Of a stretch of DNA of 64,000 nt, positions 22,414-49,264 are shown in pieces; position 1 is the stretch's first letter, and every line of letters starts with the position of its first letter. The translations under genes were made by a program, and so were the position numbers. Under the pieces are notes generated by a model. It was not told where the DNA came from and did no database searches. It saw only the letters and a list, made by a program, of their open reading frames with translations. The stretch is from a virus (Duplodnaviria; Caudoviricetes), in the IMG/VR virus record IMGVR_UViG_3300037067_012889, positions 288,001-352,000 of that record; one strand, written 5' to 3'.

Positions 22414-24048
22414 TTATAATTCTGCCTCTGCGGTCCAATGACAATTGCACCAACAACTAGCCAACAACGGCCCAACTGACGGAAGTTGGAAGCTCCTAAA
22501 AGCAGGAGATGCAGCTCCCGTTGCGTAATCGCCCTTGGCTACCCCTGAGTAATTCCATAAAGAAAACATCCAAATCGTACCAAGAGATTGAGAATATGTC
22601 GTGACGGTAGGTATCTTAAATTTCACCGCAGTGAAATCTTTCACGTTCGGAACAATAACATTCGTTGTTAGTGAACTTACTGAAAAAACTCCCGAAGAAG
22701 GACCCGCTGTCCCAGGCATCACATCGAGATCATAACTCTTCTCATAATATCTCTGACATAACGCCAACTCTTCCCCTATTGGTCTAGGATTCCAAGCACG
22801 TGCAGGACCGACATGGCAATCGACCTGTGTCAAACCAAACGAGTAACCTGTTATTGGAGATTCTGTCCAAAAGAAAACGATTAGATTGTTGCAGGCACTA
22901 CTTATTGTCGCTGATAAGCTAATTGGAGTAAGACTGCTTGTTACTACCGAAGAACCAACAGCGGCCACAACCAAATTGCTTGCTAAAAAGAAATTGTTTG
23001 GTGTGTAAGATGTACTAGTCCAATCTTTCACTACATCGCTTGTCACTGTATCTGCCACACCTGTCCATTCTAATATAGCATAACGTAAAACAAACGCTGG
23101 TGGAGCAGTAGTTGTCGCTTCGGCCTGCAAAATCACAGTTTGCCCACGTAATGGGAATGAATTAGCACCTTCAACAATTTGCAACAAACCCATTCTTTGT
23201 GCTGTGGCATTGTTCTGTACTGCTAATCCTTCAAACGGCCCAGGTTGTGCTGGTGTACCAGTTGCTAAATTCCAACGCGTAGTTTCGATAGTTGTGGTTT
23301 GTGTTAAAGCTACCCAACGATCGAAACAATATGTATCGTCGACCGATGTGTAGTAATATCCGTATTCATTACGATTTCGTTGAAAGAAATCAAATCCGCC
23401 ATTGATGATTACATTATCAATACCACTCGGACCAGTAGCACCAGAAAGACCAGTTAGGCCGGTCGAACCAATAGAACCCTGAGTACCAACAGGGCCTGTA
23501 GCACCAGTTAATCCAGCCCCTGTAGCACCAATTAATCCAGTAGATCCACGCGGGCCTGTAGCACCAGTTAAACCAGTGCCCGTGGCTCCATTTGGTCCTG
23601 CAACTCCGGTGCTCCCCGTGGCTCCCGTTGGGCCTCCTAAAGGTCCCGTTGCACCTACCGGCCCAGTAGAGCCCGTCGCACCTGTCGGCCCACCGGCTGG
23701 CCCCGTCGCACCAGAAGCACCATCTACACCAGTTGCACCAACACTACCAGTCGCACCAGTCAAGCCAGTAGCACCAAGACCGGTAGCACCAAGACCGGTA
23801 GCACCAGTAGCACCGGTAGGACCACCCAATGGACCTGTGGCACCAGTATAGCCTGTCGCACCAGTAGCGCCTATTGAACCAGATCCACCAGAAACAGTCT
23901 TTTCAGAGCCATCAGAAAATCTCATATTAATAACTACTGTAGTATCACTACCTGTAGTTAGCCATTGATAGACAATATTTTCTGGCGGATTATCACCAAA
24001 AACAGGCGCTGATGTTAATTGTACTACTCTGAATTCTTTAAATTTCAT
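22414..24048 (-). CDS. Collagen-like tail fibre / receptor-binding protein
   Basis: Gly-X-Y (GAT) repeats followed by [13 protein letters not shown]...FDRW and [14 protein letters not shown], typical phage fibre domain motifs. Confidence 0.8.
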
Positions 24049-24050
24049 AG

Positions 24051-26627
<2,577 letters not shown>

Positions 26628-26684: not shown

Positions 26685-32600
<5,916 letters not shown>

Positions 32601-32738: not shown

Positions 32739-35549
32739 TCATTCGGCCTCGGATTGTACCTTGGACCAAGCAGCTTTGGTCCATAGAGGTTCGATAACAG
32801 TTCCTCTCTTTAGAACAAAACTATTGCGATCTGGATCGTACGTAACCCTTACTCTGATACCCCTATCTGGCTGTAATAACTTTTTAGTCTGATTTCTAAT
32901 GTCTTGCTCCCAAACAAGTATCAAACAGGTCTTGCGGCCATCTGAAACTGTCATACGAAGCATGTCAGAACCTTTTTTAGTCTTGGCGTACATGACCTCC
33001 ACTATTACGCCTTCCAAACAATCATTAATTTTCGATTTATCAACAGTATGATCACCACTAACTTTATATAGATCAATAGGAGAGTGCCAATGATATCCTA
33101 AAAATTGCTTCTCGAACTGCAACACTCTAGAAAATTCATAATCATCCTGATACAGAGACATAATATCTTCACGAGTAGCCTTTATAGTAGGACGCCAATT
33201 TTCCATTTTCTTCGGAATCTTGCGCTTTGGAAACTGCCGCTTGAATTCGACTATTTGACGCTCTCGCTCAACCAAGATTGTCGCCTCAGTCCAATTAGCA
33301 TTGGCTATAAGGCGACGCATATTGCAATCTTTTAATATCTTGACCGGATAGCTGAATGTTTTTAATTTTGGCTTAGTTTCTAATTGTTTAGCTTTCGATG
33401 CTGCCAGCTCGGCTTGTGCCTGTTCATCAATATTGTCAAATTCAAAATCTTCAACTGCACCGGAACCATAAGCGTGCAAATACCACATCCACGTAGCTCT
33501 CTTATTGGGATGTAGTCGCGAAAATGCACCAAGTTTGATAAGACGCTCGAAAAGAATCTTGCTTTTACCTTTTTTGGTGATAAAATCATCTATATCGGTA
33601 TATTCGTTGCCGCCAACCTCGTCAATAAAACTATCAGCAGCTTTATCTCCTATTTTCTTCAAGCTTGTCAAACCAAGTGCGATATGCTTATTAACATTTG
33701 GACCAGAATGTGCAGTAGGCTTAGATGTTAATTTCTTTATATCAATTTCACCAAATTCGATACCTTCACCACGAGCCGCAGACATGTATCGTTCTAGAGC
33801 CTTTTGATCACATAGGCCCATTACACTGGCCCACCACTCCTCAGGATAATGAGCTTTAAGCCATAAACAACGATAAGCCCATAGGCAATAGCAGATAGCA
33901 TGGCTTAAATTGAAGGCATATCGACCAAACGTTTCCATCTTATCCCAATATTCATGTGCCTTCGATTCACCTATCTTTTTACTAGCGCCTACTATCCAAT
34001 GTTCTCTAACAGGTTTCAACTTATCCTTCCATTTCTTGGCCACCGCTTTTCTAGCATCCTGTGATTCCGGCCCTGTAAATCCGGCAACCCTCTGCCAAAT
34101 GGAAGTTAACTGCTCTTGGAACACAATTACACCACTAGTCGGCTTTAATATTTCGATAATGGCCTCGTGTTCACCCCTAGACCAACTATTTGCTACATCA
34201 TCTCGATTTTTAACATAATCCGGAATGCTTTGCATTGGTCCTGGGTGACCCATCGCATTGAAAATCAATAAGTCGTGAAAGCTCTTAACGCCGTTCGACA
34301 ATGTTCTCTTAGCTAGTTCTGTGTCGAACTGAAAAATGCTGTCTGTTAATGACTCGTTGGCGAGTTTCAATGCTGCTCGATCGTTGAGCGATATAGATAT
34401 TTTCTTACCGTCTTCCCAATAGTAACCAGCAATATCGTCATTCGGATCAGATTCATCCCATCCTTCCAATTGATCGCCGAAAGATATGCCATGATTCTCT
34501 CTAATCATTTCACAGCACGTCTTAATATATGCTAAATTCTTTAGACCAAGCATGTCCCACTTCAAATAGCCAAATTTCGATAACTGTGTGCTATGGCCCT
34601 CTGTCCAAATGCTAACCCACTGATCTGTTTTGCTATCGTATTGCATCGGTACGTTGCCAAATAGATCGCGGTCGGCGATAATGATACCGCCAGCATGTTT
34701 ACCAGCATGCTTCAAACGACCAACCAATCGAATAGCTGTATCGATGACCTGCCTGTGTTTTTCTTTGCTTTCTGATATGAATTTTTCTATTTCTGGATAA
34801 TCACGCAAAATCATTGCGATGGTCGGCGTATCTGTATCGCCACTGCCACATTTAGGGCATTTTAATTCTTTGTGCTTAAAACCGCATTCTTTTTCTGGAC
34901 CGTCTCCATCACGAACACGGCCCTTGCATGCACCTAAACCTCCCTCACGCATAGTATTGACATCGTCTGGAAGGTCTTTTGTTAATACAACAGCTCTATT
35001 CTTAATTCCAACACCATGTTGGCTGCCGCCCTCTAACTTATCTAGCCCGAGAGCTGTATATGCGTCTGCGATAGCCTGCTTAAAAAGATAGGTCTGCCAA
35101 GTACCGACACTAGCCACATTGTTCTCACCATATCGCTCGGCAGCATAGCTTTTTATTTTATTTCTGGCTTCTGGTAGACAGTCGATATCGATATCTGGTT
35201 TATCGTCGTCTTGACGAATATCGGCTGGTAGCTTTCCAGTCTTTTTTATAATTGCTTGCACATCGTCATACTTTGCACTAAGCATCAGAGGTCCATCTCT
35301 ATGTGCAATTGGATCTTTATCAGCGTCACCAACAAATCGCTTGAGCAGCCATGGTAACAAGAGTTGATTTGGATTTTTATCGTACTTCCTACCAGACTCC
35401 ATCAAATCTTCGTAATACCTTTGGGCTCCTTGCATACGAACTTGGTCTAGCTCAAAATTTAGCCGTTTGGTGTAGATTTCAGGTAACCCTAACTTTTTGA
35501 TACGTCCGTGCGCCGCTGCAGCAAGAGTCTCAAAACTATACTTTCCCAT
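32739..35549 (-). CDS. dnaE: DNA polymerase III alpha (DnaE), C-terminal part: catalytic Asp triad, fingers, HhH, OB
   Basis: KPDIDID, GKHAGGIII, LKWDMLGL, IFQF, VIVFQEQL, YAFNLSHA..Y, LKAHYP, GLTSLKKIG, EKQFLG. Confidence 0.9.
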   Translation of the reverse strand: MGKYSFETLAAAAHGRIKKLGLPEIYTKRLNFELDQVRMQGAQRYYEDLMESGRKYDKNPNQLLLPWLLKRFVGDADKDPIAHRDGPLMLSAKYDDVQAIIKKTGKLPADIRQDDDKPDIDIDCLPEARNKIKSYAAERYGENNVASVGTWQTYLFKQAIADAYTALGLDKLEGGSQHGVGIKNRAVVLTKDLPDDVNTMREGGLGACKGRVRDGDGPEKECGFKHKELKCPKCGSGDTDTPTIAMILRDYPEIEKFISESKEKHRQVIDTAIRLVGRLKHAGKHAGGIIIADRDLFGNVPMQYDSKTDQWVSIWTEGHSTQLSKFGYLKWDMLGLKNLAYIKTCCEMIRENHGISFGDQLEGWDESDPNDDIAGYYWEDGKKISISLNDRAALKLANESLTDSIFQFDTELAKRTLSNGVKSFHDLLIFNAMGHPGPMQSIPDYVKNRDDVANSWSRGEHEAIIEILKPTSGVIVFQEQLTSIWQRVAGFTGPESQDARKAVAKKWKDKLKPVREHWIVGASKKIGESKAHEYWDKMETFGRYAFNLSHAICYCLWAYRCLWLKAHYPEEWWASVMGLCDQKALERYMSAARGEGIEFGEIDIKKLTSKPTAHSGPNVNKHIALGLTSLKKIGDKAADSFIDEVGGNEYTDIDDFITKKGKSKILFERLIKLGAFSRLHPNKRATWMWYLHAYGSGAVEDFEFDNIDEQAQAELAASKAKQLETKPKLKTFSYPVKILKDCNMRRLIANANWTEATILVERERQIVEFKRQFPKRKIPKKMENWRPTIKATREDIMSLYQDDYEFSRVLQFEKQFLGYHWHSPIDLYKVSGDHTVDKSKINDCLEGVIVEVMYAKTKKGSDMLRMTVSDGRKTCLILVWEQDIRNQTKKLLQPDRGIRVRVTYDPDRNSFVLKRGTVIEPLWTKAAWSKVQSEAE

Positions 35550-36457: not shown

Positions 36458-37900
36458 TTAGTCTATTTTGGTTTTTAGCATGTATCCGCCACGAGAGCTT
36501 GCTAGAAATCGATCAAACGACATGCCCCATGCTAGTGAATTTAAAGTATGGATACCAAGAAGATGGCATACAAATGATCCTGCGGCCGAACCACGTGGTC
36601 CAAACGGCCAACCTTGCTTTCTTCCCCATTGAATTAAATCTCTCGTTATCAAGAAATAACTAGAAAATCCTTTGTCGATAAATCTATTAAGCTCAATTTC
36701 GACCTGCTCCGCATATGTCACTTCACGTCCATCCGAAGACCATTTTCTTGTGTCTTTATCCCATCCACGCTTTCTAAGCTCTGCATATACAATTTCAGCT
36801 AATTTCTTATTAGCATCGACTCCCTTCTCAATATCGGACCATTTTGGAATCTTTGGGGAAGTATCCGGAGCAGGTTTTTCACATCGTTCCGCTATCAACA
36901 ATGTATTATCACACAATTCCTCGAATTTAGCATTATCTATCTTATGCGAATAGCCGCGATTTTTAAAAGTCGCCCACAAATCACCCCGTGACTTCAAATA
37001 TTGTTCTTCACTTTGAGATTGAAACATATTTGGGTCGTAAATGCTAGTCTTTTGATCGACTGCCATCATAACTCTTTGTAAGTAAGAGTCTTCACGTATA
37101 AGATAATGAGCATCGTTAGCGATAACCGGCTTAATACCGTACATATCAGCCAACTCAATTAACTTGCGAAATACTCTAACATCATGCACCGCAACATTAT
37201 TTTCTAACAATCCAGTATCCGGCAGACACGGCATTTGCACTTCCATAAAGAAGTCTTCGCCAAAAACCTCTTTGAATTTTTTAATATATTGCACGGCTGT
37301 CAGATCACGATCAGCAACACGTGGATGCGGTTTTTTCTCCCTTATTAAATTGTCAATATCTAACCTAATCTCATATGCAACTGGCCCATTTACGCATCCA
37401 GATAATACGATTAAACCTTCTTTATACTCACACAGCTTCTCTAACCAGATGCGCGGTTTACGATAAAAACCGAATTTGTTCGCTAATGTCGTTAACTTAA
37501 TTAAATTGGCGACACCAGTAGCATTCTTACAAAGAATGGTCATGTGTCGATTGCGCCCAATGCGCTGTTTAAGATCGACATCCATACCCTTCTGTTTAAC
37601 ACCCTGTGTATCTAGATCTCTACGCAGTTGCTCGTAGTCATTGAAATATATTTCACAACCCGGAATATATTTCAATCCTCGCTTCTTAAAAGCGAAGTAC
37701 ATATCTGGAAAGGACGCCATATGCCCATGCTCTGTAGCCGCCATTGCCGGGAATCCGGACTGAATACATGCATCGGCATATTGTTCTGCTGACGGAACAC
37801 CATCTAGAGACGACGATAAGCTGTGCACATGAAGATGTACGAACTCTTTTGGTCCAGTATATTGCGTTGATTCAACTTCTTCTTGCATAATTGTGTTCAA
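36458..37900 (-). CDS. dnaE: DNA polymerase III alpha (DnaE), N-terminal part: PHP domain plus the GRGS region
   Basis: FVHLHVHSLSSSLDG, ATEHG, PGCEIY, LSGCVNG, ANDAHY, GFSSYFLI, GPRGSAAGS, FDRFL. Confidence 0.9.
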   Translation of the reverse strand: MNTIMQEEVESTQYTGPKEFVHLHVHSLSSSLDGVPSAEQYADACIQSGFPAMAATEHGHMASFPDMYFAFKKRGLKYIPGCEIYFNDYEQLRRDLDTQGVKQKGMDVDLKQRIGRNRHMTILCKNATGVANLIKLTTLANKFGFYRKPRIWLEKLCEYKEGLIVLSGCVNGPVAYEIRLDIDNLIREKKPHPRVADRDLTAVQYIKKFKEVFGEDFFMEVQMPCLPDTGLLENNVAVHDVRVFRKLIELADMYGIKPVIANDAHYLIREDSYLQRVMMAVDQKTSIYDPNMFQSQSEEQYLKSRGDLWATFKNRGYSHKIDNAKFEELCDNTLLIAERCEKPAPDTSPKIPKWSDIEKGVDANKKLAEIVYAELRKRGWDKDTRKWSSDGREVTYAEQVEIELNRFIDKGFSSYFLITRDLIQWGRKQGWPFGPRGSAAGSFVCHLLGIHTLNSLAWGMSFDRFLASSRGGYMLKTKID

Positions 37901-39045
37901 GATGTCTCAGCCGCTATGAGGCAACCCTCACTAACAGCAAACAGCGGATCTTTACATCGCTTCACTTTATTAATGGCAAATGGTGGTTTTTCTTCTTGGA
38001 ATAGCTGGGCTACCATTCCTTCGAAGCCAACCGGACACGATGTGCCACCGGCCATAAATACGTCGATGGGCTTATCCATTCGAGCGCTCGTTTCATTATC
38101 AACAAAACCTTGAACGATACCACGAATAACATTCTGAATAAGAATCCTGTAATGTAAAACAATATCTAGTTCAAGTCGAGTCGTATAATTTTGTGTAAGA
38201 TCGAGTTTCTCCTTCACACGACAAACCGTCGTTGGAGTTTCTGCGGATTTCTTATATAGCATGTTCGGATCATAGCCGTGCCGCTTAGCAACCTCAGAAT
38301 CAATCCAGTCGCCAGCACCGACCCAGCTAAATGAATAAATCTCATTGCCCCATAGAACATAACTAACTGTAACAGTACCAGCACCCCAAGAAATACCAAT
38401 ACCAGTCGCATCTGGCGTTTCTTTTAACACCAATGCGTGAGATTCCTTTATCGAGCTGGTTATAATTTTCGATTCAGTCTGATAGCCAGAAATAATTAAA
38501 TTAATAACTTGCTGATGGTAATCAATATTCATCGCATGATTAAGCGCCTTCGCCGTAGTGCAATAGCATAATTTAACTTCTGGATCAAATGTGCCAGCAT
38601 CATGCTCCGACATTGATAGTAAACCTTGGACAATACTAGATAGCACCATTAAAGCAGCTTCGTCAGCGGCAACACCACCTTCGGCCATTGGCCGTAACAA
38701 TGTACTGTTATGTGCATATGCTAATTCTTCTGCATCCTTGCCAAGCACATAAATTCCATCCTTGCCATCAAGATGGATCCACTTCGCTTGGCGTTTAGTA
38801 CCATCTGATCTCGTCTTATTTGGATCGTCGAGCATATTCTCTATGAATTTACTCGGTCGTGGGATAAGATAATAGCCGTTGATTTCTTTTAGAAAAACCA
38901 GTTTATTGTTGTGTCGAAATGATACAACTATATTCTTGGTCCCAATATCGATACCAATTGCATTCACTGCTGCTCTCCTAATTGTACAGTCATCACCCAA
39001 TCCAAATACAAAAGATGATTGCTCTAACTCATCATCATTGACCAC
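37897..39045 (-). CDS. Actin-like ATPase (MreB/ParM/FtsA superfamily); probable GTG start at 39045
   Basis: Phosphate-1 IGIDIGT, LLRPMAEG, IKESHA, phosphate-2 GISWGAGTV, GAGDWID, adenosine MAGGTS, DPLFAVSEG. Confidence 0.85.
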   Translation of the reverse strand: MVNDDELEQSSFVFGLGDDCTIRRAAVNAIGIDIGTKNIVVSFRHNNKLVFLKEINGYYLIPRPSKFIENMLDDPNKTRSDGTKRQAKWIHLDGKDGIYVLGKDAEELAYAHNSTLLRPMAEGGVAADEAALMVLSSIVQGLLSMSEHDAGTFDPEVKLCYCTTAKALNHAMNIDYHQQVINLIISGYQTESKIITSSIKESHALVLKETPDATGIGISWGAGTVTVSYVLWGNEIYSFSWVGAGDWIDSEVAKRHGYDPNMLYKKSAETPTTVCRVKEKLDLTQNYTTRLELDIVLHYRILIQNVIRGIVQGFVDNETSARMDKPIDVFMAGGTSCPVGFEGMVAQLFQEEKPPFAINKVKRCKDPLFAVSEGCLIAAETS

Positions 39046-39364
39046 GTTTAGTGACGACTTTTGTTCCGAATCCGCCTTTGGGGATGGGTGGTCGACCAAT
39101 TGATGGCGCAAGAGCTTCTGGGGGAAGATCTGGCGCATTGAGAAATGGAGTGGAAATAGGCTGCTCGGTGGCATTAACAGCTCGCGCTGCAATTCTTTGC
39201 TCTCCGGTATATGCTCCGGTGGCAGCTTTCGTAATCGGTCTTTCCATGTTGCGACTATCAAATGTTGTCCTAACAAATTCCTTGTAGATCAACAAGACCA
39301 ATCCAAGAGACACCAACGCAACGACCAGTGCTATTAACGCTACAAATAGCGCCGCGACATCCAT
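39035..39364 (-). CDS. Small membrane-anchored protein (N-terminal TM helix, Pro-rich tail)
   Basis: About 25 hydrophobic N-terminal residues; stop overlaps the actin-like gene start. Confidence 0.7.
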   Translation of the reverse strand: MDVAALFVALIALVVALVSLGLVLLIYKEFVRTTFDSRNMERPITKAATGAYTGEQRIAARAVNATEQPISTPFLNAPDLPPEALAPSIGRPPIPKGGFGTKVVTKRGQ

Positions 39365-39366
39365 AT

Positions 39367-40863
39367 CTACTGAGGTCCTGTTGTTTTTTGCATATATTCA
39401 TACCGCAATAAAGAAATATTCCATTTCTTAAGTGGATCAAACAGCATATTATATCCTCTGTTGATGCGAGCAATATAATTTTCTGTATCTTTGTTATTGG
39501 GCCAATATTTTCCATGATTATATTGTGGAACTAAAGTGGTATGACTACGCCCATCGGGAGCCAATTTAGCATCACAACCAAATAGAGTAATCGTCTTCGC
39601 ACCCATGAATGCAGCTATATGTATAGCAGTATGGACGGTTGAAGCATGATGGAAAAATGGCTGATCCTTATTATTTAAGCAAGAATCACAGTCTTGCTGA
39701 CCAAGTTCGTAAGTTATACAATCAGCAAATTTTGATGACGGTGCAACGGACGTTATACCAGCACCTGTCTTCAATTTTTTCGGAATAAGCAATTGTCTCG
39801 GGTTATATCGTTTAGCATCTATAACCGCCTCGGCTGGTTTTAGATCATGAAACACAACATAATCACATCCAAATACTAGCGCGTTATAATTCACACCTAT
39901 CACGACATCGAAGTCGTCTAATATCCCAGCAGTAACATGATCTAACGACGGGCCAGCACCCAATATAGCGATACGAGCATTGGCATGTTTGTTTTTTAAT
40001 AGCTCTATGCCCTGCAAATCTGGCAAAAAATTATCAAGAAACCACTGAAATGGTCTTTTCTGAATTCTATTGCGTATGGCTACACGCTCCGTTATATCGC
40101 CAAACTTAATATCTCCTGGTTTTTTTCTAATAGATTGATAAAATAATTTCTTATAATCATCGAACCATACTTCCGCTATACGTGCCTTATTCTGCTCTAA
40201 TGTGGGCGTATCAAATTCATAATTGAATTTGGTTTTAAACCAATGTGCAGCTACAGAATCGCGAACTACTTCAACAGATCCACCAGCAAGCCATGTTCGA
40301 AGAGAAAATTCGATATTTTCACAACCCCACTTATACATACCGGTGTCAAATCCACCAGTTTCTTCCCACCATCGCTTTGTGAATGCAAAACAATGACCAG
40401 CGAACGCTGGCATCATATCGGTGCCATCATCAGATATCCAATTAAAATCGAGATTCCATCTCCAACCAGTCTTAGCATAAGCAGCTGTAGTCTCCACCCA
40501 ATTCGGTGCATCAAGCCCTCTAGTTAACGGTACAGCAACACAATTGTACCGTTGTGTTAGTCGTTCAATAATTGGTGGTAACCAACCCGGCGCTACCTTT
40601 ATATGCGGATCCATCGACACCACAATCGGAGACTGCGCAAGCGCAGTACCGGTGTTCCGTGATCGTATAAGACCTTCACGCATCTCATTACGCACAACGA
40701 CCACATTTGGTCTATCGATTGCAACCGGAACCTTACTGCAATCATCAATAATTATGATTTTGTCAATAAGTCCGGCTGGTGTGTTTTCAGTAATCGTATC
40801 TATCGTCTTTTCAGTATAATCTTCATTCAACACCGACATAACAATTGTTGCTGTAGACATCAT
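39367..40863 (-). CDS. Polypeptide GalNAc-transferase-like (GT27-like) domain fused to a DUF115/Maf-like domain
   Basis: REGLIRSR, DPH (DxH), GWLPP, AGHCFA, WGCENIEFSLRTWLAGG, AHWF, NKARIAEVWFDDYK, FGDITER; C-terminal AILGAGPSL...IGVN...STVHTAIHIAAFMGAKTITLFGCD. Confidence 0.8.
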   Translation of the reverse strand: MMSTATIVMSVLNEDYTEKTIDTITENTPAGLIDKIIIIDDCSKVPVAIDRPNVVVVRNEMREGLIRSRNTGTALAQSPIVVSMDPHIKVAPGWLPPIIERLTQRYNCVAVPLTRGLDAPNWVETTAAYAKTGWRWNLDFNWISDDGTDMMPAFAGHCFAFTKRWWEETGGFDTGMYKWGCENIEFSLRTWLAGGSVEVVRDSVAAHWFKTKFNYEFDTPTLEQNKARIAEVWFDDYKKLFYQSIRKKPGDIKFGDITERVAIRNRIQKRPFQWFLDNFLPDLQGIELLKNKHANARIAILGAGPSLDHVTAGILDDFDVVIGVNYNALVFGCDYVVFHDLKPAEAVIDAKRYNPRQLLIPKKLKTGAGITSVAPSSKFADCITYELGQQDCDSCLNNKDQPFFHHASTVHTAIHIAAFMGAKTITLFGCDAKLAPDGRSHTTLVPQYNHGKYWPNNKDTENYIARINRGYNMLFDPLKKWNISLLRYEYMQKTTGPQ

Positions 40864-40868
40864 AACCC

Positions 40869-41528
40869 CTAAACAACATGAAGCGTTGTATTGCCGACAA
40901 TCTCGATTTTGACCCCACGTTTCCTTACTTCATTAATTACCGTGCTCATTGTTATGCGCTGACTTTCTGATATACTTCCCGGCCTTCTAGTATGATAAAA
41001 ATAATGATTGCCAATATTAGTAAATCCACAGCCATACAGAACAATTTTAGAAGCACCCATCACATATGCCAATTGTACGGCACAGCAAGATATCGTCCCG
41101 CCAAACATCAAATAATTCATATCTTTTTTAAGCCTATCTAACTTATACCACTTATACATAAAAGTCCGATGTGGACTAACAGGACAAGGTAACTGTATAG
41201 TATTTTGTTTGGCAGTAACAACAGCTATTCTCGTTATACCCGGATATGACTCGTCTGGATAAAGAATTTTATCAGACGAAGCAATCATTTTCGCTATCAC
41301 TCTAGTATCAGAACAATCAATATTGAACCAATCATATGTTGGTGATTTAACATCACCACACATAAAGTAATTAAAACGCTTTCCTAATTTAGCAGCACCA
41401 TTGACACCGATCGATATATCTGTTTTATTCTCAACAAAGTCAATAGCTGTCGGCCCAGATCCGACAATAGCAATTGTCATACCTGCGTGAATGTTACGAA
41501 GCGTTTTAATCATTCCTCTTCGAACCAT
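40869..41528 (-). CDS. DUF115/Maf-like (sialyltransferase-like) Rossmann-fold transferase
   Basis: IAIVGSGPT, IGVNG, GGTISCCAVQLAYVMGASKIVLYGCGF...HYF. Confidence 0.7.
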   Translation of the reverse strand: MVRRGMIKTLRNIHAGMTIAIVGSGPTAIDFVENKTDISIGVNGAAKLGKRFNYFMCGDVKSPTYDWFNIDCSDTRVIAKMIASSDKILYPDESYPGITRIAVVTAKQNTIQLPCPVSPHRTFMYKWYKLDRLKKDMNYLMFGGTISCCAVQLAYVMGASKIVLYGCGFTNIGNHYFYHTRRPGSISESQRITMSTVINEVRKRGVKIEIVGNTTLHVV

Positions 41529-43399
41529 TCACCTAGATTACAAACAGATTCAGGCCACAATACCTTTCCATCTCGCTCTCTTGGTCCTTCATCTAAGAAG
41601 CATCCACATACAGCACATCGATTAAGCGTACGTTGTGTACACAAAGCGCATATATCTAGCCGCGATTCTATTGTTTCGATTCGCGCTGTTTTTATGCCAG
41701 CGGCAGCATGTTTTAAAAGCGCCTTCGTATAATTCCATACCATCTTGGTCAATGGCGGAAGTTTTTTCTTATCTGTTATATCGCGACTTAGAATTGTATA
41801 ACCGTAGTCGTCCTCATCATGTTCGACTACTGACCATTCTGGGTGCTCTCGCATATATTTCCGCATCGCCGGGAATAAACCGGGGCCAGATGGCTCACCA
41901 ATTTCACCATATGCACCAGTTGAACGCAATAGAATGTAGTGGCGTACACGATGTCCAAACCTGGACAATTCAGCATAAAGTCTGTCAGCTTGATGGATGG
42001 AATGTATGACCAAGAGATCGGTCTCTTCTATGTCGTCGAGCGTCATCCAATCAATATGTTGGCTTTTATAATCTACAAGGTCGCCACATAATTTAGCTAA
42101 ATGCTTATGAATCGCTGCCGGTTCAAGTGTGTAAACTCGCAAAACCTTTGGATGTCCAGCCAATAACGTAACATCAAACTCTTTTTGTTTAACCATTGCT
42201 GTAATATGCTCGCACTTAGAAGCAAGCTCGCGAAAACGCGGCATATGGCGACCCATGTTGTGTGGGTGCTGCTCTGTCCAAGAAAATACTTCATCAATAG
42301 TAGAACCAAAATTTCCACAAGTCTGACATGGTGGGTCTATGTGTCCTACTGGATCTTCTATAAGATAGTTCCAAGATTTTTCATCTATAACCTCCTCGAA
42401 CGACACACGTCCTTCGCGCATTCTCTTCTTAAGACCAACAAAATGATCTCGAATGTCCTCTATCCCCATACCAAGCTCTTGACGCCCTATAACATAATTA
42501 CGGATTCTGTCCCAATAATTAAGTGGATATGCAACACCGTTTGGACGTAAAAATCGGTGCGACCATCCGAGAAATGGGAGATTCAAACACTTATGACCAG
42601 CTTTTCGATATTTAGCGTGTATGTAACCTTCTTCGCCGCCAAACCCACGAAATTCAGAATTAAATCCGAGCCACGCATCTCTACGGCAAGAAAAAAGCCC
42701 CATACCATGAGCCGGTATTTCGAATGCTGGATCATTATAGTTGCACCCAAGAGGTTTACATCCAATGTTGTAAAATGCTGGCTCATGACCAGTATATGGA
42801 ATTTTCGGATAGATAAGACCACAAGGGCATTGTGTACGTGATATATCGCTATACATCAAGTCATGTATGATGATTTCTCCATTCCATATCGGGATTGAGA
42901 AATACCGACCACATTTACACATCCAAGCTCTACTCCAAATACCTAGCATATTATCACGCCACACTAAATCGAAATGTGTAGAAATATCCCGAAGATTATC
43001 ATATATTAACGGACCTGTTAATAAATCTTTGTTATCTCGATTAAATTCATACCAATCAATAAGCCGTTTTACAGCACCTGGAACAAGTAAAACATGACAA
43101 TCCATACAAAGAACAAACTCGGTCTGTGCTTCTCGAAATATACGATCTTTCGCATTAGCTGGACCAATTTTTTCTTCATAAGGAACATATCGTGCAGACG
43201 ATATACTGTCTACGAACTTTGAAACAGCTTTGCCAGCAACAGTCGCTGGCGAATTATCAATTACGACGATCTCGACATCATTTATGTCGTGATACATTCG
43301 CAGAGCTTGAATAGAAAAGTAAACTCCGTCATAGTCATTGAAATGAGCTAGTCCAACAGTTAGCTTCTTCGGCATGGTTCTTCCATTATATATTTTCAA
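41510..43399 (-). CDS. GT-A glycosyltransferase + methyltransferase-like domain + C-terminal Cys cluster
   Basis: VVIDNS, LCMDCH, GLFSC..AWLGFN..FRGFGGEEG; ETDLLVIHSIH; RLDICALC...RCAVCGCFL...CNLGEW. Confidence 0.75.
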   Translation of the reverse strand: MKIYNGRTMPKKLTVGLAHFNDYDGVYFSIQALRMYHDINDVEIVVIDNSPATVAGKAVSKFVDSISSARYVPYEEKIGPANAKDRIFREAQTEFVLCMDCHVLLVPGAVKRLIDWYEFNRDNKDLLTGPLIYDNLRDISTHFDLVWRDNMLGIWSRAWMCKCGRYFSIPIWNGEIIIHDLMYSDISRTQCPCGLIYPKIPYTGHEPAFYNIGCKPLGCNYNDPAFEIPAHGMGLFSCRRDAWLGFNSEFRGFGGEEGYIHAKYRKAGHKCLNLPFLGWSHRFLRPNGVAYPLNYWDRIRNYVIGRQELGMGIEDIRDHFVGLKKRMREGRVSFEEVIDEKSWNYLIEDPVGHIDPPCQTCGNFGSTIDEVFSWTEQHPHNMGRHMPRFRELASKCEHITAMVKQKEFDVTLLAGHPKVLRVYTLEPAAIHKHLAKLCGDLVDYKSQHIDWMTLDDIEETDLLVIHSIHQADRLYAELSRFGHRVRHYILLRSTGAYGEIGEPSGPGLFPAMRKYMREHPEWSVVEHDEDDYGYTILSRDITDKKKLPPLTKMVWNYTKALLKHAAAGIKTARIETIESRLDICALCTQRTLNRCAVCGCFLDEGPRERDGKVLWPESVCNLGEWFEEE

Positions 43400-46076
43400 G
43401 ATAAAGATCGGCCATTGGTCGCCAATCTGGCGATTCGCTCGTACTATCGTAACTCCCTATTGGCTCTGTAGATATTATCCTTTGCACCCAAACATATGAT
43501 CCCGGATCATGTGTAAGCGATGTCGTCGGTCCACCAGTGCCACCAGAAATTTTCCAACCAAGACCTTCTCCTAAATACGACAGTATGTATCCCTCTCCTT
43601 GTCCATTGCCTGGTGGCTGTGCTCTCAAATCTTCTGTTCCTTGTTGCATGAAGTCGCCACCTGCGACACCTGTGTATATTCCTACAGCTGGGTGCACTGT
43701 TTCCGGACCATGGATATATGAAACAGAATATGTGATTATCGGGCCAGATGTAGTTGTGGGACCAGATGTAGTTGTGGGACCAGATGTAGTTGTCGGTCCA
43801 GACGTAGTCGTGGGACCAGACGTGGTTGTCGGTCCAGACGTAGTTGATGTGGTTGTGGGACCAGATGTGGTTGTGGGACCAGATGTGGTTGTGGGAGCAA
43901 TACCTGGCTTGCACCTAGTGTACGTAAGCTCGTAATCTGCTTTAGGTTCTTCACCCGGACTTGGCGGATCGCAATAGCAACCAAACTGAGTGCAATCCTT
44001 TAAATGGACCCAATCACCACCGCCAGGAGATTTGTACCATGAGCATCGGTCTGTGCACACAATTTCCGGACTTGACGTTGTCGGCGTTGGTGGTATTGTC
44101 GGCGTTGGTGGTATTGTCGGTATCGGTGGTATTGTCGTCGGCGCTAAAGTTGTTGTTGGATATGGAGATTCTGTTGTAGTTGTAGTAGTTGTCGGGCCAA
44201 TGGTAGGTGCTATAGTAGTCGTCGGTGCTACGGTAGTCGTTGGCCGAGTTGACGAGCCAATTGCACAAGCTAGTAGTGAATAACCTAAACAACTAACAAC
44301 ACCTTCAAGATTGATATCAATCCCAAATTTTAGATAAACACCACTGTTCCCTGTATATGTGAATACTAATGGTGACCCGATTGTTGAATATTTCTTGCCA
44401 CCGTGGACGCTGCTATTGTTAGTACATATAGCCGACCAAGCAACCGAACATGACGCAGCATCGGGATAGTCCGGACACGATGCACTACTTATTGATTTCG
44501 CTTCAGCACAAATATCATTAAATTTTGTACTGAACGTGATCGTTATTGTAACAGTGCTTGTATCAACGTAAGGTATGTTTACGGTGATGTCATAGTGTTG
44601 TAATGTACCATCCACAACACAATCAAATCCCTCGCACGTTGGATCGTCTGATGGATCTGGATTATATGGCATCCTAAGCTCTAAACTAGTATCTAGATAG
44701 CTAGGGCAATCGCATGGACAACATATTTCATCTATTGGTGGTGTTATTGGTTCTACGACCAACACAGGACAACTGCCAGAGACATCGTTAACATTAGAAC
44801 AGAAAAAGAAATCTTCTTGACAGCAGCGTTGTCCCGGATATTGTGGTTCAATTATTGACCATGGATATCGTGAATCTTGATTTGTGCTAGAATTGGCCTG
44901 CCTCCAAGCAACTATAGACGCTGGAGTAAAATCCTTCCAATTGAATTTGGCCTGATGTTTGGTCCAACATGCTTCTACTGGTGTCCATTCAACAAACTGT
45001 AATGTGGGTGCTATGAGATCTATAACTTGCTTCTCTTCAAACTGAAATCGTGTTATGTTTTTACAAGTATCAGTCACAGATCGAACTGCAGCAAACGACA
45101 AATCGCTAATCGCACTAAGCGTATCTATGTTAGTTGTATTGCATGCATGTGATATCGCAAGCTTCGATACGCAGTTCTTTAAAAATAAAGTATCAGAAAA
45201 ATAGAAAATACTCGATTTTAATCCACTATATCGTAATGTAATAACTGCTTTCGTAGCTGCAATTGTATCATCGACTAAACTATTTTCTGCGACCTCAAAG
45301 AAACCCAAGCCGTCAGCGCCTTGTGGACCTTTACGACCAATTTCATTGGCTTTATAATACCAACTATGATCGGACCAATCATTAGATATTAATTGACCCG
45401 AAATAGTAGAAGTAACGCGATCATAGTTTAAAAAAGAATCTGAACTCAGCTTGATTTCTGAATATGATATCGTATATGGATCATCATTAACCGGTTGTAA
45501 AATGGTCAATACGCTTTTGTTGGAGCCGCTTTTAAATAGTCGCAACGAAATAGGCGTATCGATAGTCGATGTAACAGTCGCATTAATAAATAGCACAGTA
45601 CCAACCACAGAAGCAATATGCTTTAATTCAGATGCACCGGCTATACCATCTACCCCAGTGGCACCAGTTGCTCCTATTTCCCCCTGTTCGCCTGGACACT
45701 TCATCTGTGAAAGCAGTGACAACAATCTCGGTCTACTTACTTCAATTCTAAGATCATTCTCAGATTCAGGTTCGAATGTTATTGTGTGATTTGAAGATCT
45801 GAATAGATAATAATATCCAGCAGTATATGGATATATTTTTAAGAAATCGAAAGTCAAGCCGCTCTGAACGGCACTCGATATAGCATTGATACGCGTTACG
45901 ATAGTCGGTGAAATCAAACCATTGTTAGCCTCGGTAACAACAGGAACAGATTCTAAAGCACCGATACATGACCAAATATTCAACCTACTATTATATTGCC
46001 ATCTATCGCCATTACCGTCTAACACGATAGTGCCGTCTGCAACATTTTCACCATTACTTAATGCGTGACAACTCAA
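43386..46076 (-). CDS. Large Cys-rich putative virion protein with mucin-like Thr/Pro tracts
   Basis: Short collagen segments, CC motifs, (PTTTSG)n and (PTIP)n repeats; paralog of 46093..48357. Confidence 0.75.
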   Translation of the reverse strand: MSCHALSNGENVADGTIVLDGNGDRWQYNSRLNIWSCIGALESVPVVTEANNGLISPTIVTRINAISSAVQSGLTFDFLKIYPYTAGYYYLFRSSNHTITFEPESENDLRIEVSRPRLLSLLSQMKCPGEQGEIGATGATGVDGIAGASELKHIASVVGTVLFINATVTSTIDTPISLRLFKSGSNKSVLTILQPVNDDPYTISYSEIKLSSDSFLNYDRVTSTISGQLISNDWSDHSWYYKANEIGRKGPQGADGLGFFEVAENSLVDDTIAATKAVITLRYSGLKSSIFYFSDTLFLKNCVSKLAISHACNTTNIDTLSAISDLSFAAVRSVTDTCKNITRFQFEEKQVIDLIAPTLQFVEWTPVEACWTKHQAKFNWKDFTPASIVAWRQANSSTNQDSRYPWSIIEPQYPGQRCCQEDFFFCSNVNDVSGSCPVLVVEPITPPIDEICCPCDCPSYLDTSLELRMPYNPDPSDDPTCEGFDCVVDGTLQHYDITVNIPYVDTSTVTITITFSTKFNDICAEAKSISSASCPDYPDAASCSVAWSAICTNNSSVHGGKKYSTIGSPLVFTYTGNSGVYLKFGIDINLEGVVSCLGYSLLACAIGSSTRPTTTVAPTTTIAPTIGPTTTTTTTESPYPTTTLAPTTIPPIPTIPPTPTIPPTPTTSSPEIVCTDRCSWYKSPGGGDWVHLKDCTQFGCYCDPPSPGEEPKADYELTYTRCKPGIAPTTTSGPTTTSGPTTTSTTSGPTTTSGPTTTSGPTTTSGPTTTSGPTTTSGPIITYSVSYIHGPETVHPAVGIYTGVAGGDFMQQGTEDLRAQPPGNGQGEGYILSYLGEGLGWKISGGTGGPTTSLTHDPGSYVWVQRIISTEPIGSYDSTSESPDWRPMADLYLENI
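43741..43897 (-). repeat. 18-bp coding tandem repeat (PTTTSG)n
   Basis: ggaccagatgtagttgtg-type units repeated. Confidence 0.9.
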
Positions 46077-46092
46077 CTAAGTACTCCTTAAC

Positions 46093-48357
46093 TTATGGTG
46101 ACGGCGATGGTGACGGTGATGGCGATGTTGACGGTGAAAACGACGGCAATGATAGAGATGGAGACAATGAGTACGATGGCGATGCTGATGGTATAGATGG
46201 CGATGGAGATAATGATTTACTTGCTGATGGCGATAACGATAATGACGGGGATAATGATTGTGAGTGTGAAGGCGAAAGAGATGGTGACAAACTCACTGAT
46301 GGAGATATTGATGGCGAATACGACATGCTTAACGATCGCGACGGTGAAGGAGACAATATCGATGGTGACGAAGATGGAGATGGCGAGACCCCAGACGCAC
46401 CCGTAGCCCCAGGCACTCCAGACGCACCAGAAGCCCCGGTGGCCCCAGAAGCCCCGGTGGCCCCAGAACCACATGTTACTCCTGTTGCACCAGTTGCAGC
46501 AGTTATGTTTTTAGTCGCAATCGAAACAGTAAGCTTGTAACCAAGACAACAATCCAATTTAAGAGTATTAATCTCAGCGTGTGCGGAAATTGTTCCTATT
46601 GATCCGATATATCGCTGCCACATTGTACCGACTGCAGTACAAGATTGACTACTGCTGCTCGATTGCAACGACAGGGTTGATGTTTTGGTGGATTTGTCCG
46701 AAATTGTCCAGCTTATCGGACAATTCGATTCAGAGACTGCCTCACGTGGATCAAATATGAATCCAGGTATCGTGTTAGATTGTGATGAATACAAATCTCT
46801 TGATTCATCACAAATAGAATCATATTCTAGCTTCCATGAAACTATTACAACAATCGCCGATGATGTTGATAAATTAATCGTTATATTATATTCGTGCGTT
46901 TCTCCATTTATGCTACATATAGCTATTTGAGATGATGTCTCGACAATATCAGTAACATTAACATCTTCAAATTCGTAACCATCTTGCAATAAGAATGATA
47001 TTGGGCAATCACAATCACAACCATAAGCCGTTTCAATCGGTGCGAGCAGATCGCCAACAATGTTAACTGGGCATGCTCCGGTCACATCGTTCACATTAGA
47101 ACAGAAGAAAAAATCTTCTTGGCAGCACATTTGCCCCGGATCAGACTCTTCAACTATCGCCCACGGATAACTGGGATCACCAGCTATGGCACTATTAGCT
47201 TTTTGCCATGGGACCATAGCTGAGCCGACCTTCGTAAAATCCATCCATGACAATCGAGTCTCCGCCATATGTCGTTGCCGCAGGCATGTAGCAGTTGGAG
47301 TCCATTCGCTAAAAACTAAATTCGGTATTTCGGCAACTACTGGTTCTAAAACATATCTCGTAATATTCTTACAAGTATCAACTGTCATGTGTAATGCTGC
47401 ATATGAATCAGTAAGTGATATTGTGGTGGTCGAGCATATATTGTTAATTGCTAATTTCGATACACAATTTGTTTTAAATAATTCTGCTTTAAGATAATTG
47501 ATCGTGTCGGTACTATCACCCTCGCGCATCATTATGACGGCGTTATTGGCTATAAGACTTGCATCGTCGATAGAATCGGTTATAACTTCTAGAAAGCTGC
47601 TACCTTCTGGCCCGGTCGCACCTTTTCTGCCCATCTGAAGCGCTTTATAATACCAATTCGTCTTTCCCCATTGCGAGCTAGCTATCTTTCCAACTAATTG
47701 GCCATCTGAATAGTCAAAAAATGTAGCAGTTGAATCTATGATTATCTTGGATTGTAAAATCTCATATTCAGAACCAACTACCTTTATAACAACAGTCGGA
47801 GTTGTAGAATAACCAGCAAAAATTCTCAATGATATCGGCGTACCTAACGAGTCATCAACGGCTACGTCTATTGTTAGAATTGAACCAGACACAATTGCAG
47901 CATATTTTACTTCGTCCTCTCCGGCTGTTCCTGATATACCAGCAGCACCAGTTGCTCCTACTTCACCCTGGCTTCCGGGGCATTTGATTTGTGAAAGCAG
48001 CGACAATAATCTCGGTCTACTTGCTTCAATCCTAAGAGCGTTCTCGGATTCTGGCTCAAATGTTATTGTATGATTTGAAGATCTAAATAAATAGTAATAT
48101 CCAGAAGTATATGGATATATTTTTAAGAAATCAAAAGTTAAACCATCCTGGACGGCACTTGATATCGCGTTAATACGCGTTACGATAGTCGGTGAAATCA
48201 AACCATCTTTGGTTTCTGTTACGACCGGCGAATCGCCAATCATACCAATATTGGTCCAAGAATTAGTCTGCGTGTCATATTGCCAAATCGATCCATAGGT
48301 ATCGCAAACCTGCGTACCATCGGTGGCTGTTTTCGGCAGGTTTGCGATATTGGACAT
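46093..48357 (-). CDS. Large Cys-rich putative virion protein with a C-terminal Ser/Pro-rich tail
   Basis: Shares GLISPTIVTRINAISSAVQ...CCQEDFFFCSNVNDV with the adjacent paralog; (SP)n C-terminus. Confidence 0.75.
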   Translation of the reverse strand: MSNIANLPKTATDGTQVCDTYGSIWQYDTQTNSWTNIGMIGDSPVVTETKDGLISPTIVTRINAISSAVQDGLTFDFLKIYPYTSGYYYLFRSSNHTITFEPESENALRIEASRPRLLSLLSQIKCPGSQGEVGATGAAGISGTAGEDEVKYAAIVSGSILTIDVAVDDSLGTPISLRIFAGYSTTPTVVIKVVGSEYEILQSKIIIDSTATFFDYSDGQLVGKIASSQWGKTNWYYKALQMGRKGATGPEGSSFLEVITDSIDDASLIANNAVIMMREGDSTDTINYLKAELFKTNCVSKLAINNICSTTTISLTDSYAALHMTVDTCKNITRYVLEPVVAEIPNLVFSEWTPTATCLRQRHMAETRLSWMDFTKVGSAMVPWQKANSAIAGDPSYPWAIVEESDPGQMCCQEDFFFCSNVNDVTGACPVNIVGDLLAPIETAYGCDCDCPISFLLQDGYEFEDVNVTDIVETSSQIAICSINGETHEYNITINLSTSSAIVVIVSWKLEYDSICDESRDLYSSQSNTIPGFIFDPREAVSESNCPISWTISDKSTKTSTLSLQSSSSSQSCTAVGTMWQRYIGSIGTISAHAEINTLKLDCCLGYKLTVSIATKNITAATGATGVTCGSGATGASGATGASGASGVPGATGASGVSPSPSSSPSILSPSPSRSLSMSYSPSISPSVSLSPSLSPSHSQSLSPSLSLSPSASKSLSPSPSIPSASPSYSLSPSLSLPSFSPSTSPSPSPSPSP

Positions 48358-48622: not shown

Positions 48623-49264
48623 ATGGATACCATCAGGTTTGAATGTAAATTATCGAGAGTTTTGTCATTAAATGAATCGATGACGCCCGGTAATATTATT
48701 CAAGCAATAAACAACCAGCGCCAATCGCAACATCTAGATCCATTATCCCCAAATAGTAGTATTAGTATAGCTGCTGAAATTCAGGCTATACAAATGGCTT
48801 CAACTGGCCAATTTGGGCATGTACTAAAGAATGTTAAATATCCAAAACCAGCAGACAGAATGAGAGCATCTGGGTATGATTTTTTGAATGCCGGTGAAGT
48901 ATTGTATGCGGGCACAGACGATCAAGATATGGCTGTACGAGATTGGCTCAATTCAAAACCGCATCGTGAAGCAATACTCCATCCGGATGTTAAAGAAATC
49001 GGGGCAGCTATCAAGCACGATAAAAATGGTCGTGCTTATGCCTGTGCTGTAGTGTGCGTTCCAAACAACAAAAGAAAACAACGGACGAAACAGAAAACAA
49101 AAAATGTTGCTTCTGAAATTGGTAATAGAATTATAGATGCTGTCGAAGAATATGGAAAAACAGCTGGTAAGAAACTACTGATTAAAATTGCACAATCTGA
49201 CCAATATAAGAATATTCTTCAATCACCTATTATCAAAAAGATAATAAAAGCACTACAAGACTAA
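48623..49264 (+). CDS. CAP (SCP) domain protein
   Basis: INNQR, FGH, GEVLYAG, WLNSKPHREAIL, EIGAA. Confidence 0.8.
   Translation: MDTIRFECKLSRVLSLNESMTPGNIIQAINNQRQSQHLDPLSPNSSISIAAEIQAIQMASTGQFGHVLKNVKYPKPADRMRASGYDFLNAGEVLYAGTDDQDMAVRDWLNSKPHREAILHPDVKEIGAAIKHDKNGRAYACAVVCVPNNKRKQRTKQKTKNVASEIGNRIIDAVEEYGKTAGKKLLIKIAQSDQYKNILQSPIIKKIIKALQD

Follow-up and report, generated by a model that had tools for sequence, protein, structure and literature searches.

What would an enzyme of the kind that starts mucin-type O-glycans in animals do in the genome of a tailed phage? The question is raised by a stretch of 64,000 nucleotides (nt), hereafter the window, that covers bases 288001-352000 of the IMG/VR virus record IMGVR_UViG_3300037067_012889. 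This record is 363,885 bp long and complete by CheckV, and matches to tail-fibre and tail-spike PHROGs, a split DnaE and other phage genes identify the source virus as a jumbo tailed phage. An earlier note, made from the DNA letters, had described in the window a eukaryote-like mucin-type O-glycosylation kit, where an enzyme resembling a polypeptide N-acetylgalactosaminyltransferase (GalNAc-transferase or GalNAc-T, glycosyltransferase family GT27) is encoded beside mucin-like proteins. Enzymes of this family are regarded as eukaryotic, Golgi-resident initiators of mucin-type O-glycosylation (PMC8724618, PMC4202792). The cluster consists of five co-directional open reading frames (ORFs) on the minus strand (46093-48357, 43386-46076, 41510-43399, 40869-41528 and 39367-40863), spaced by 5-19 nt (gaps or overlaps), the last of which encodes the enzyme in question, a protein of 498 amino acids (aa). 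What could be observed directly are its homology and fold, the catalytic and groove residues, the domain architecture, and the order of the genes with its conservation. Judged by its sequence, the enzyme is a genuine, divergent homologue of GT27-type protein O-glycosyltransferases with a new architecture. Its role is probably to O-glycosylate extended Thr/Ser tracts of fibre-like proteins that the phage itself encodes, the glycan then being lengthened by DUF115 and GT2-like enzymes.

The catalytic domain comprises residues 1-286 (40006-40863, minus strand). The 498-aa translation carries all the hallmark motifs of the family in the order in which the earlier note had listed them, namely REGLIRSR, DPH, GWLPP, AGHCFAF, WGCENIEFSLRTWLAGG, AHWF, NKARIAEVWFDDYK, GDITERVAIR and FQWFLDNFLP. 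When the ORF was compared with the PDB sequences by phmmer, all 16 matches were polypeptide GalNAc-transferases, the best with an E value of 2e-45 over query residues 8-283, and for this reason the relation to GT27 is one of homology and not of chance. Pfam recognised Glycos_transf_2 (PF00535, E 1e-15) and Glyco_transf_7C (PF02709, 31 bits with a cut-off of 23), both above their cut-offs, and this is the domain pair of GalNAc-transferases. The AlphaFold2 (AF2) model of the enzyme, with 25 homologues in the alignment, had a predicted local distance difference test (pLDDT) score of 92.6. The comparison with GalNAc-T2 by Foldseek, which had been proposed as a check, gave a clear answer: all the top matches listed were GalNAc-T chains, and human GalNAc-T2 (T2) was matched with an E value of 1e-27 and a root-mean-square deviation (rmsd) of 2.2 Å over 309 columns, at 30% identity. 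To animal-type GT27 representatives the catalytic domain is 33-37% identical. In the model the first beta-strand of the GT-A fold is formed by residues 4-10, the protein beginning directly at this fold, and the hydrophobic N-terminal segment of a type II (Golgi) topology was found in none of the phage copies of the enzyme. Neither the enzyme nor the fibre-like proteins of the cluster have a membrane anchor or an N-terminal signal peptide, and they would therefore meet in the cytoplasm.

In order to map the functional residues we have used a HMMER alignment to T2 that reproduces the known T2 numbering (D224, H226, H359), with residues counted in 48 copies from phages and in two sets of eukaryotic representatives, 42 canonical and 36 from protists. 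The metal ligands D85, H87 and H207 (T2 D224, H226 and H359) are present in all 48 phage copies, and D40 and D41 are likewise invariant in them. The Gal/GalNAc-T motif reads WGCEN (W179-N183); W179, G180, E182 and N183 do not vary among the phage copies, and the residue at position 181, a Cys here, is Gly in 29 of them. R62 (T2 R201) is Arg in 43 of the 48. The residues of the peptide groove are kept to a similar degree, with F140 (T2 F280) in 47 copies and both W142 (T2 W282) and F209 (T2 F361) in all 48. The corresponding residues of T2 recognise Pro-x-Pro acceptor motifs, and the substitution W282A or F361A nearly abolishes T2 activity (PMC4432651). This conserved F/W/F groove is the best sequence-level argument that the acceptor would be a peptide.

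A search with the catalytic domain by HMMER against 1.84 billion representatives gave 6079 matches, 503 of these representative clusters having E<=1e-30. Behind the relatives from phages, alveolates (Chromera, Effrenium, Alphamonas, Vitrella and Dinophysis) were the best matches that carry a name, and canonical enzymes from fish, moth, Monosiga and an amoebozoan ranked after these. Metagenomes contained about 50 clusters (at 90% identity) of the same GT27-DUF115 fusion, on contigs of up to 370 kb, together with stand-alone catalytic forms of 280 aa, and some of the metagenome relatives are labelled 'polypeptide N-acetylgalactosaminyltransferase' by the Joint Genome Institute (JGI) pipeline. 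Two trees were built, one by a quick search (101 rows) and one by a careful search with posterior mean site frequencies (PMSF; 56 rows), both unrooted and without a GT60 or GT2 outgroup. In both, a single branch set off each of three groups, with support of 100/97 for the phage enzymes, 100/98 for the canonical eukaryotic ones (animal and choanoflagellate) and 100/98 for those of protists (alveolate), and the stand-alone forms were nested within the phage fusion clade. As the root is not fixed, no claim can be made for a phage origin or for an ancient capture. These sequences do not give the impression that the enzyme was recently acquired from eukaryotes. The description 'eukaryote-like' is thus right as regards a genuine GT27-type homologue but not in the sense of a capture from animals, the phage clade being separate and well supported.

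The search of 50,697 GenBank phage records with the enzyme by tblastn found nothing, and no relative turned up when 185,579 prokaryote species genomes were scanned with patterns that reach close relatives only. The best match among the BFVD viral structures was a generic GT-A protein (E 2e-16, 18% identity), far weaker than human T2, so that the phage clade is absent from catalogued viral proteins. Literature searches, including ones aimed at phage GT27 and virion glycosylation, returned no report of a phage GT27 enzyme.

The second half of the enzyme (residues 289-498; 39367-39999, minus strand) was expected to be a DUF115/Maf-like domain in place of the ricin lectin domain, and the fold comparisons bear this out. 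No ricin-type lectin domain was matched by Pfam in the 498-aa enzyme. Modelled alone by AF2, the C-terminal domain had a pLDDT of 93.7, and a wide search with VIA-align placed Maf (5mu5, Z 11.5, 167 residues aligned, rmsd 3.5) and the MptE kinase (8sd5, Z 11.4) first, followed by Cst-I (2p56, Z 9.5), SteA (Z 9.2), mammalian GT29 sialyltransferases (Z 8-9) and then thiamin pyrophosphokinases. Foldseek found no match for this domain alone at E<=0.001, and its weak matches were mutually consistent (sialyltransferases, Maf, MptE and SteA). A stretch GAGPSLD...DFDV aligns with GNGPSL...DFDV of Cst-II. The stand-alone Maf-like protein that had been noticed in the same operon is the 219-aa product of 40869-41528 (minus strand), a DUF115/MptE-like (Maf/sialyltransferase-type) protein that is paralogous to the C-terminal domain of the fusion (hhalign probability 95%). 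It matches Pfam MptE-like below the cut-off (E 1.3e-5) and a PHROG family of alpha-2,3-sialyltransferases (E 5e-5), and has homologues at the same position, 45-75% identical, in the related contigs L002-L009 and L012. The scores for Pfam MptE-like (PF01973) were 30.2 bits for the fusion and 25.4 bits for the 219-aa protein, against a cut-off of 34.6, and cover partial stretches only. On the evidence of the model, the label 'Maf-like' holds for the fold; since this fold is common to kinases too (MptE, thiamin pyrophosphokinase), the transferase activity is presumptive. A CMP-sugar donor is presumptive as well.

Next to this gene lies that of a GT2-like GT-A enzyme of 629 aa (41510-43399, minus strand), the second DxH/GGEE enzyme that the earlier note had pointed out. 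Its N-terminal GT2-type GT-A domain is recognised by Pfam (Glycos_transf_2, E 1.9e-9), and the motifs, which read D-C-H and FGGEE, are kept, D100, H102 and G252-G255 being invariant in 7 relatives. The GT-A domain is followed by a middle domain without assignment and a Cys-rich C-terminal tail, with Pfam silent on the C-terminal 300 residues and no informative match of the protein in the PDB by sequence or profile. Its relationship to the GT27 domain is a distant one only (hhalign 70% over 108 columns).

The candidate acceptors are the two large proteins encoded upstream, of 754 aa (46093-48357, minus strand) and 896 aa (43386-46076, minus strand). They are paralogues (47% identity over 530 aa), and the mucin-like tracts that had been reported in them were indeed found, of the types PTTTSG, PT-rich and SP-rich. 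In the 754-aa protein a conserved body of ~610 aa leads into a brief collagen-like stretch (nt 46390-46500), after which comes a tail rich in Ser and Pro (nt 46096-46389), and in Pfam the protein gave a weak collagen match only. In the 896-aa protein the same body is followed by a Thr/Pro linker (nt 44073-44252), a small Cys-rich domain, a second linker of the (PTTTSG)n type (nt 43731-43898) and a distal domain; its gene contains an 18-nt tandem repeat in 9 copies with 78% match. Residues 51-150 of the paralogues are 82-90% identical, against ~35% elsewhere, which points to a docking module common to both, with a brief collagen-like run at its end.

The family of these proteins is small and unnamed. 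Homologues in ten related contigs diverge completely past a conserved CCLGY motif, beyond which the same slots hold linkers that are Thr/Pro, Ser/Pro, poly-Pro or (GAT)n collagen-like, followed by a small Cys-rich domain and swapped distal domains. On sequence grounds, the layout is that of a putative modular fibre or receptor-binding protein. In L003 (6548-9331, to be compared with 43386-46076 in the window) the slots of the two Thr/Pro linkers of the 896-aa homologue are taken by long (GAT)n runs of the collagen-like kind, and in L007 and L008 these slots are filled by poly-Pro/SPS runs. As the linker types differ between relatives in the same slots, they are interchangeable. Two further paralogues, of 963 and 1004 aa, are encoded outside the window, at 138362-141253 and 266125-269139 of G000:C1 (both minus strand), with long Ser-Pro-Ser linkers and a common C-terminal domain. 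The latter gene adjoins one whose product has dockerin and F5/8 type C (discoidin) domains.

The order fibre-like body, DUF115 or other small gene, GT27 is kept in L002-L008 (80-84% GT27 identity), L011 (53%), L012 (49%) and L018 (38%), and continues beyond the GT27 gene with the actin-like gene and DnaE, the actin-like gene being absent in L018. In this last contig (11166-13312) the GT27 gene has a different C-terminal extension and is followed by a radical-SAM enzyme, a second small GT2/7C enzyme and a methyltransferase.

We propose that the soluble 498-aa enzyme would use its GT27-type domain, Mn2+ and a UDP-N-acetylhexosamine (UDP-HexNAc)-type donor to place the first sugar on Thr/Ser. The sites would be extended, Pro-flanked tracts, the likeliest acceptors being the two fibre-like proteins encoded directly upstream and perhaps also the Gly-x-Thr collagen-like fibres of the phage. 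This first sugar would then be extended by the sialyltransferase-type domain of the fusion together with its free-standing DUF115 paralogue and the GT2-like enzyme, so that the stalks of virion appendages would bear a short mucin-like glycan, which may be acidic. In this scheme the identity of the acceptors and their location in the virion are presumptive, as are the donor sugars and the structure of the glycan. A bolder version, which we regard as doubtful, is that tailed phages hold an old, separate branch of GT27 and not a recent animal or protist capture, and that, with a sialyltransferase-type domain in place of the lectin, a single soluble protein initiates a sialyl-Tn-like O-glycan on fibre stalks and caps it too, its remodelled Thr/His/Cys pocket selecting an unusual HexNAc donor.

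Several results weigh against the proposed O-glycosylation of the fibre-like proteins, and some of them concern the sugars. At the positions of T2 I253, G309 and L310 in the sugar pocket, the phage copies have Thr (47 of 48), His (48 of 48) and Cys (48 of 48), in the window enzyme T114, H157 and C158, and the 78 eukaryotic representatives have I/V/L, G and L/I, respectively. The phage pocket is thereby unlike that of all characterised GT27 enzymes. The pair I253 and L310 is in contact with the N-acyl group of the donor sugar. It is also the pair mutated in PDB entry 6E7I, according to the entry title. Because the two gatekeeper positions are Thr and Cys, and G309 is His, in the phage copies, the donor need not be UDP-GalNAc, and from these substitutions it may differ. 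The earlier identification as a GalNAc-transferase-like enzyme stands for the catalytic centre and the peptide groove, both intact, but may not extend to the donor. As for the second sugar, neither NeuB (PF03102) nor a CTP_transf_3 cytidylyltransferase (PF02348) was found in the 364-kb genome, and the capping with a nonulosonic acid, also part of the earlier picture, is weakly supported. In its favour, a CTP_transf_3 (PF02348) gene lies 5-8 kb from the cluster in the relatives L011 and L012, and the donor for the DUF115 step could come from the host. Outside the window and ~100 kb from the cluster we have also observed a gene for Gmd (GDP-mannose 4,6-dehydratase, 532 bits, above the cut-off) adjoining a GDP-L-fucose-synthase (Fcl)-like gene (G000:C1 228439-230380, minus strand); in the contig of the relative P0026 two genes of this type adjoin the GT27 gene.

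The other adverse points concern the acceptors. Pfam, NCBIfam and PHROGs gave nothing on the fibre-like bodies beyond collagen-repeat matches, leaving their virion role without family support, and the cluster is surrounded by replication genes (split DnaE, helicase and DHH), with no recognisable structural module there. The linkers are short in L011 and L018 and collagen-like (GAT)n in L003, and the Ser/Thr/Pro tracts may act as plain spacers. That the fibre-like neighbours would be glycosylated and belong to the virion is suggested by a gene order conserved within one lineage: all the syntenic relatives are of a single phage lineage, in which the helicase, CAP, actin-like and DnaE genes of the flanks have likewise been retained. 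Since these flanking genes are conserved too, we are dealing with lineage synteny, which is weak evidence of a functional link. In L009 (57% identity) a fibre-like neighbour was not found within the 6.5 kb fetched upstream. Finally, the stand-alone enzymes of a marine clade (L010, L017 and L019) are located in generic glycan cassettes with genes for UDP-galactopyranose mutase (GLF), GT25, GT90, a methyltransferase and a dehydratase, and have no Ser/Thr/Pro-rich neighbour. Those of L017 and L019, both marine metagenome contigs, are 50% identical to the window enzyme, and DUF3431 genes are also among the members of their cassettes.

The alternative that survives best is that other phage proteins are glycosylated, above all Gly-x-Thr collagen-like fibres, in the manner of BclA-type spore fibres, and that the neighbouring Ser/Thr/Pro tracts are unmodified spacers. 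The window encodes three collagen-like fibre or spike proteins (26685-32594, 24051-26627 and 22414-24048, all minus strand), and in the first, a 1969-aa fibre interrupted by globular domains, Thr occupies the y position in 238 of the 374 Gly-x-y triplets. As targets they are equally plausible. The exchange of PT-rich linkers for (GAT)n runs in L003 speaks in the same direction, as does SgtA of C. difficile, which glycosylates Thr in such repeats (PMC7157674). Yet the groove residues kept in the phage enzyme read Pro-containing motifs in T2, and Gly-Ala-Thr repeats are without Pro; the collagen-like genes are also 7-17 kb distant, outside the cluster. Moreover, the idea is compatible with the modification of the fibre-like neighbours, as both sets of proteins could be acceptors, and in its exclusive form we consider it unlikely.

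Host molecules (surface polysaccharide, pilin, flagellin or S-layer) might instead be modified in the infected cell, as a means of blocking superinfection for instance, and the proteins encoded next door would then be unrelated. Phage GT2-type enzymes commonly modify host molecules, Maf proteins act on flagellin, and the marine cassettes with UDP-galactopyranose mutase, GT25, GT90 and methyltransferase genes resemble those for polysaccharide or glycan synthesis. Against this, none of the four cluster enzymes has a membrane segment or features of lipid-carrier use, the GT27 peptide groove is conserved, and even at 38% identity a relative still has the fibre-like gene directly upstream. We regard a host target as improbable. 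Glycosylation of phage DNA (hypermodified bases) would fit a place among replication genes, with split DnaE, helicase and DHH genes flanking the cluster and phage glycosyltransferases that hypermodify DNA on record (cited in PMC12619734), but the genome search found no thymidylate-synthase-like hydroxymethylase, all characterised close homologues act on peptides and the peptide-binding residues are kept, so that it is very unlikely.

With the O-glycosylation of the phage's own fibre-like proteins thus preferred, some features of the surroundings can be added. Directly downstream of the cluster, between it and the split DnaE, lies the gene of a 459-aa actin-fold protein (37897-39276, minus strand; Pfam Volactin, E 3e-43). 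A Volactin-type gene is directly downstream of the GT27 gene in most related loci examined (55-84% identity), the P0026 contig and L018 being without it. Two genes encode DNA polymerase III alpha, one for the PHP/N-terminal part and a large one for the C-terminal part (36458-37900 and 32739-35549, both minus strand), with small ORFs between them, and the same split is seen in relatives. On the other side the cluster adjoins the divergently transcribed gene of a CAP/PR-1 family protein (48623-49264, plus strand; E 8e-14), and relatives have a CAP gene at the same position. Promoter and terminator scans performed no better than on shuffled sequence.

The origin of the GT27 family is seen in a new light when a phage clade is well supported and has the entire catalytic and peptide-binding apparatus, and the finding also suggests that mucin-like glycans decorate the appendages of large phages in the environment. 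A coat of this kind could influence how the virion adsorbs, resists proteases or sticks to glycans of the host or the environment, and how defence or immune systems recognise it. Were the bolder version above to hold, mucin-type O-glycosylation would be no eukaryotic invention and phage 'mucin brushes' would be a widespread, undescribed feature of virions. For the making of O-glycopeptides in bacteria, a GalNAc-T homologue that is soluble, of bacterial type and different in its donor pocket would be a practical tool.

A way to place this system is to compare it with those already known. The whole catalytic domain aligns with eukaryotic GT27 enzymes (human GalNAc-T2, 2FFU and 4D0T; Drosophila PGANT9, 6E4R; Toxoplasma GalNAc-T3, 6S22), with which it has in common the GT-A fold, the metal site of DxH and His, a WGGEN-type Gal/GalNAc-T motif, the F/W/F groove and the pair PF00535 and PF02709. 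It differs in the lack of signal anchor and stem, which would make it cytoplasmic rather than Golgi-luminal, in a sialyltransferase-type domain where the eukaryotic enzymes carry a ricin lectin, in Thr, His and Cys at T2 I253, G309 and L310, and in forming a separate clade. The protist pp-alpha-GlcNAc-transferases (GT60) are described as relatives of GT27 that are also without a ricin domain (PMC8724618). Like them, the phage enzyme has no lectin domain, and GT60 enzymes start mucin-type glycans on Ser/Thr-rich domains with HexNAc; the comparison is by description only, all solved-structure matches of the phage enzyme being GT27. The C-terminal domain and the 219-aa protein have the fold of Maf, Cst-I/II (GT42), GT29 and MptE (the PF01973 fold group), with an N-terminal GxGPSL nucleotide motif; they differ from Maf and the sialyltransferases in marginal sequence similarity, below the Pfam cut-off, in lacking the flanking Maf domains and in a genome without a CMP-sugar pathway. 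A precedent in gene arrangement is SgtA of C. difficile, a soluble GT-A enzyme encoded directly upstream of bclA3 that O-GlcNAcylates Thr in collagen-like repeats (PMC7157674). In both systems a soluble GT-A gene adjoins the gene of a Thr-rich collagen-like or extended fibre, O-glycosylated in the case of SgtA, but SgtA is not GT27-type, has tetratricopeptide (TPR) repeats and makes beta-O-GlcNAc. Along these lines, capsid and tail-tube proteins of mycobacteriophages carry glycans (Freeman et al. 2023, as cited in PMC12619734). The enzymes there are not GT27-type and the targets are the C-termini of the capsid and tail-tube proteins, but there, as we propose here, a phage enzyme decorates the proteins of its own virion.

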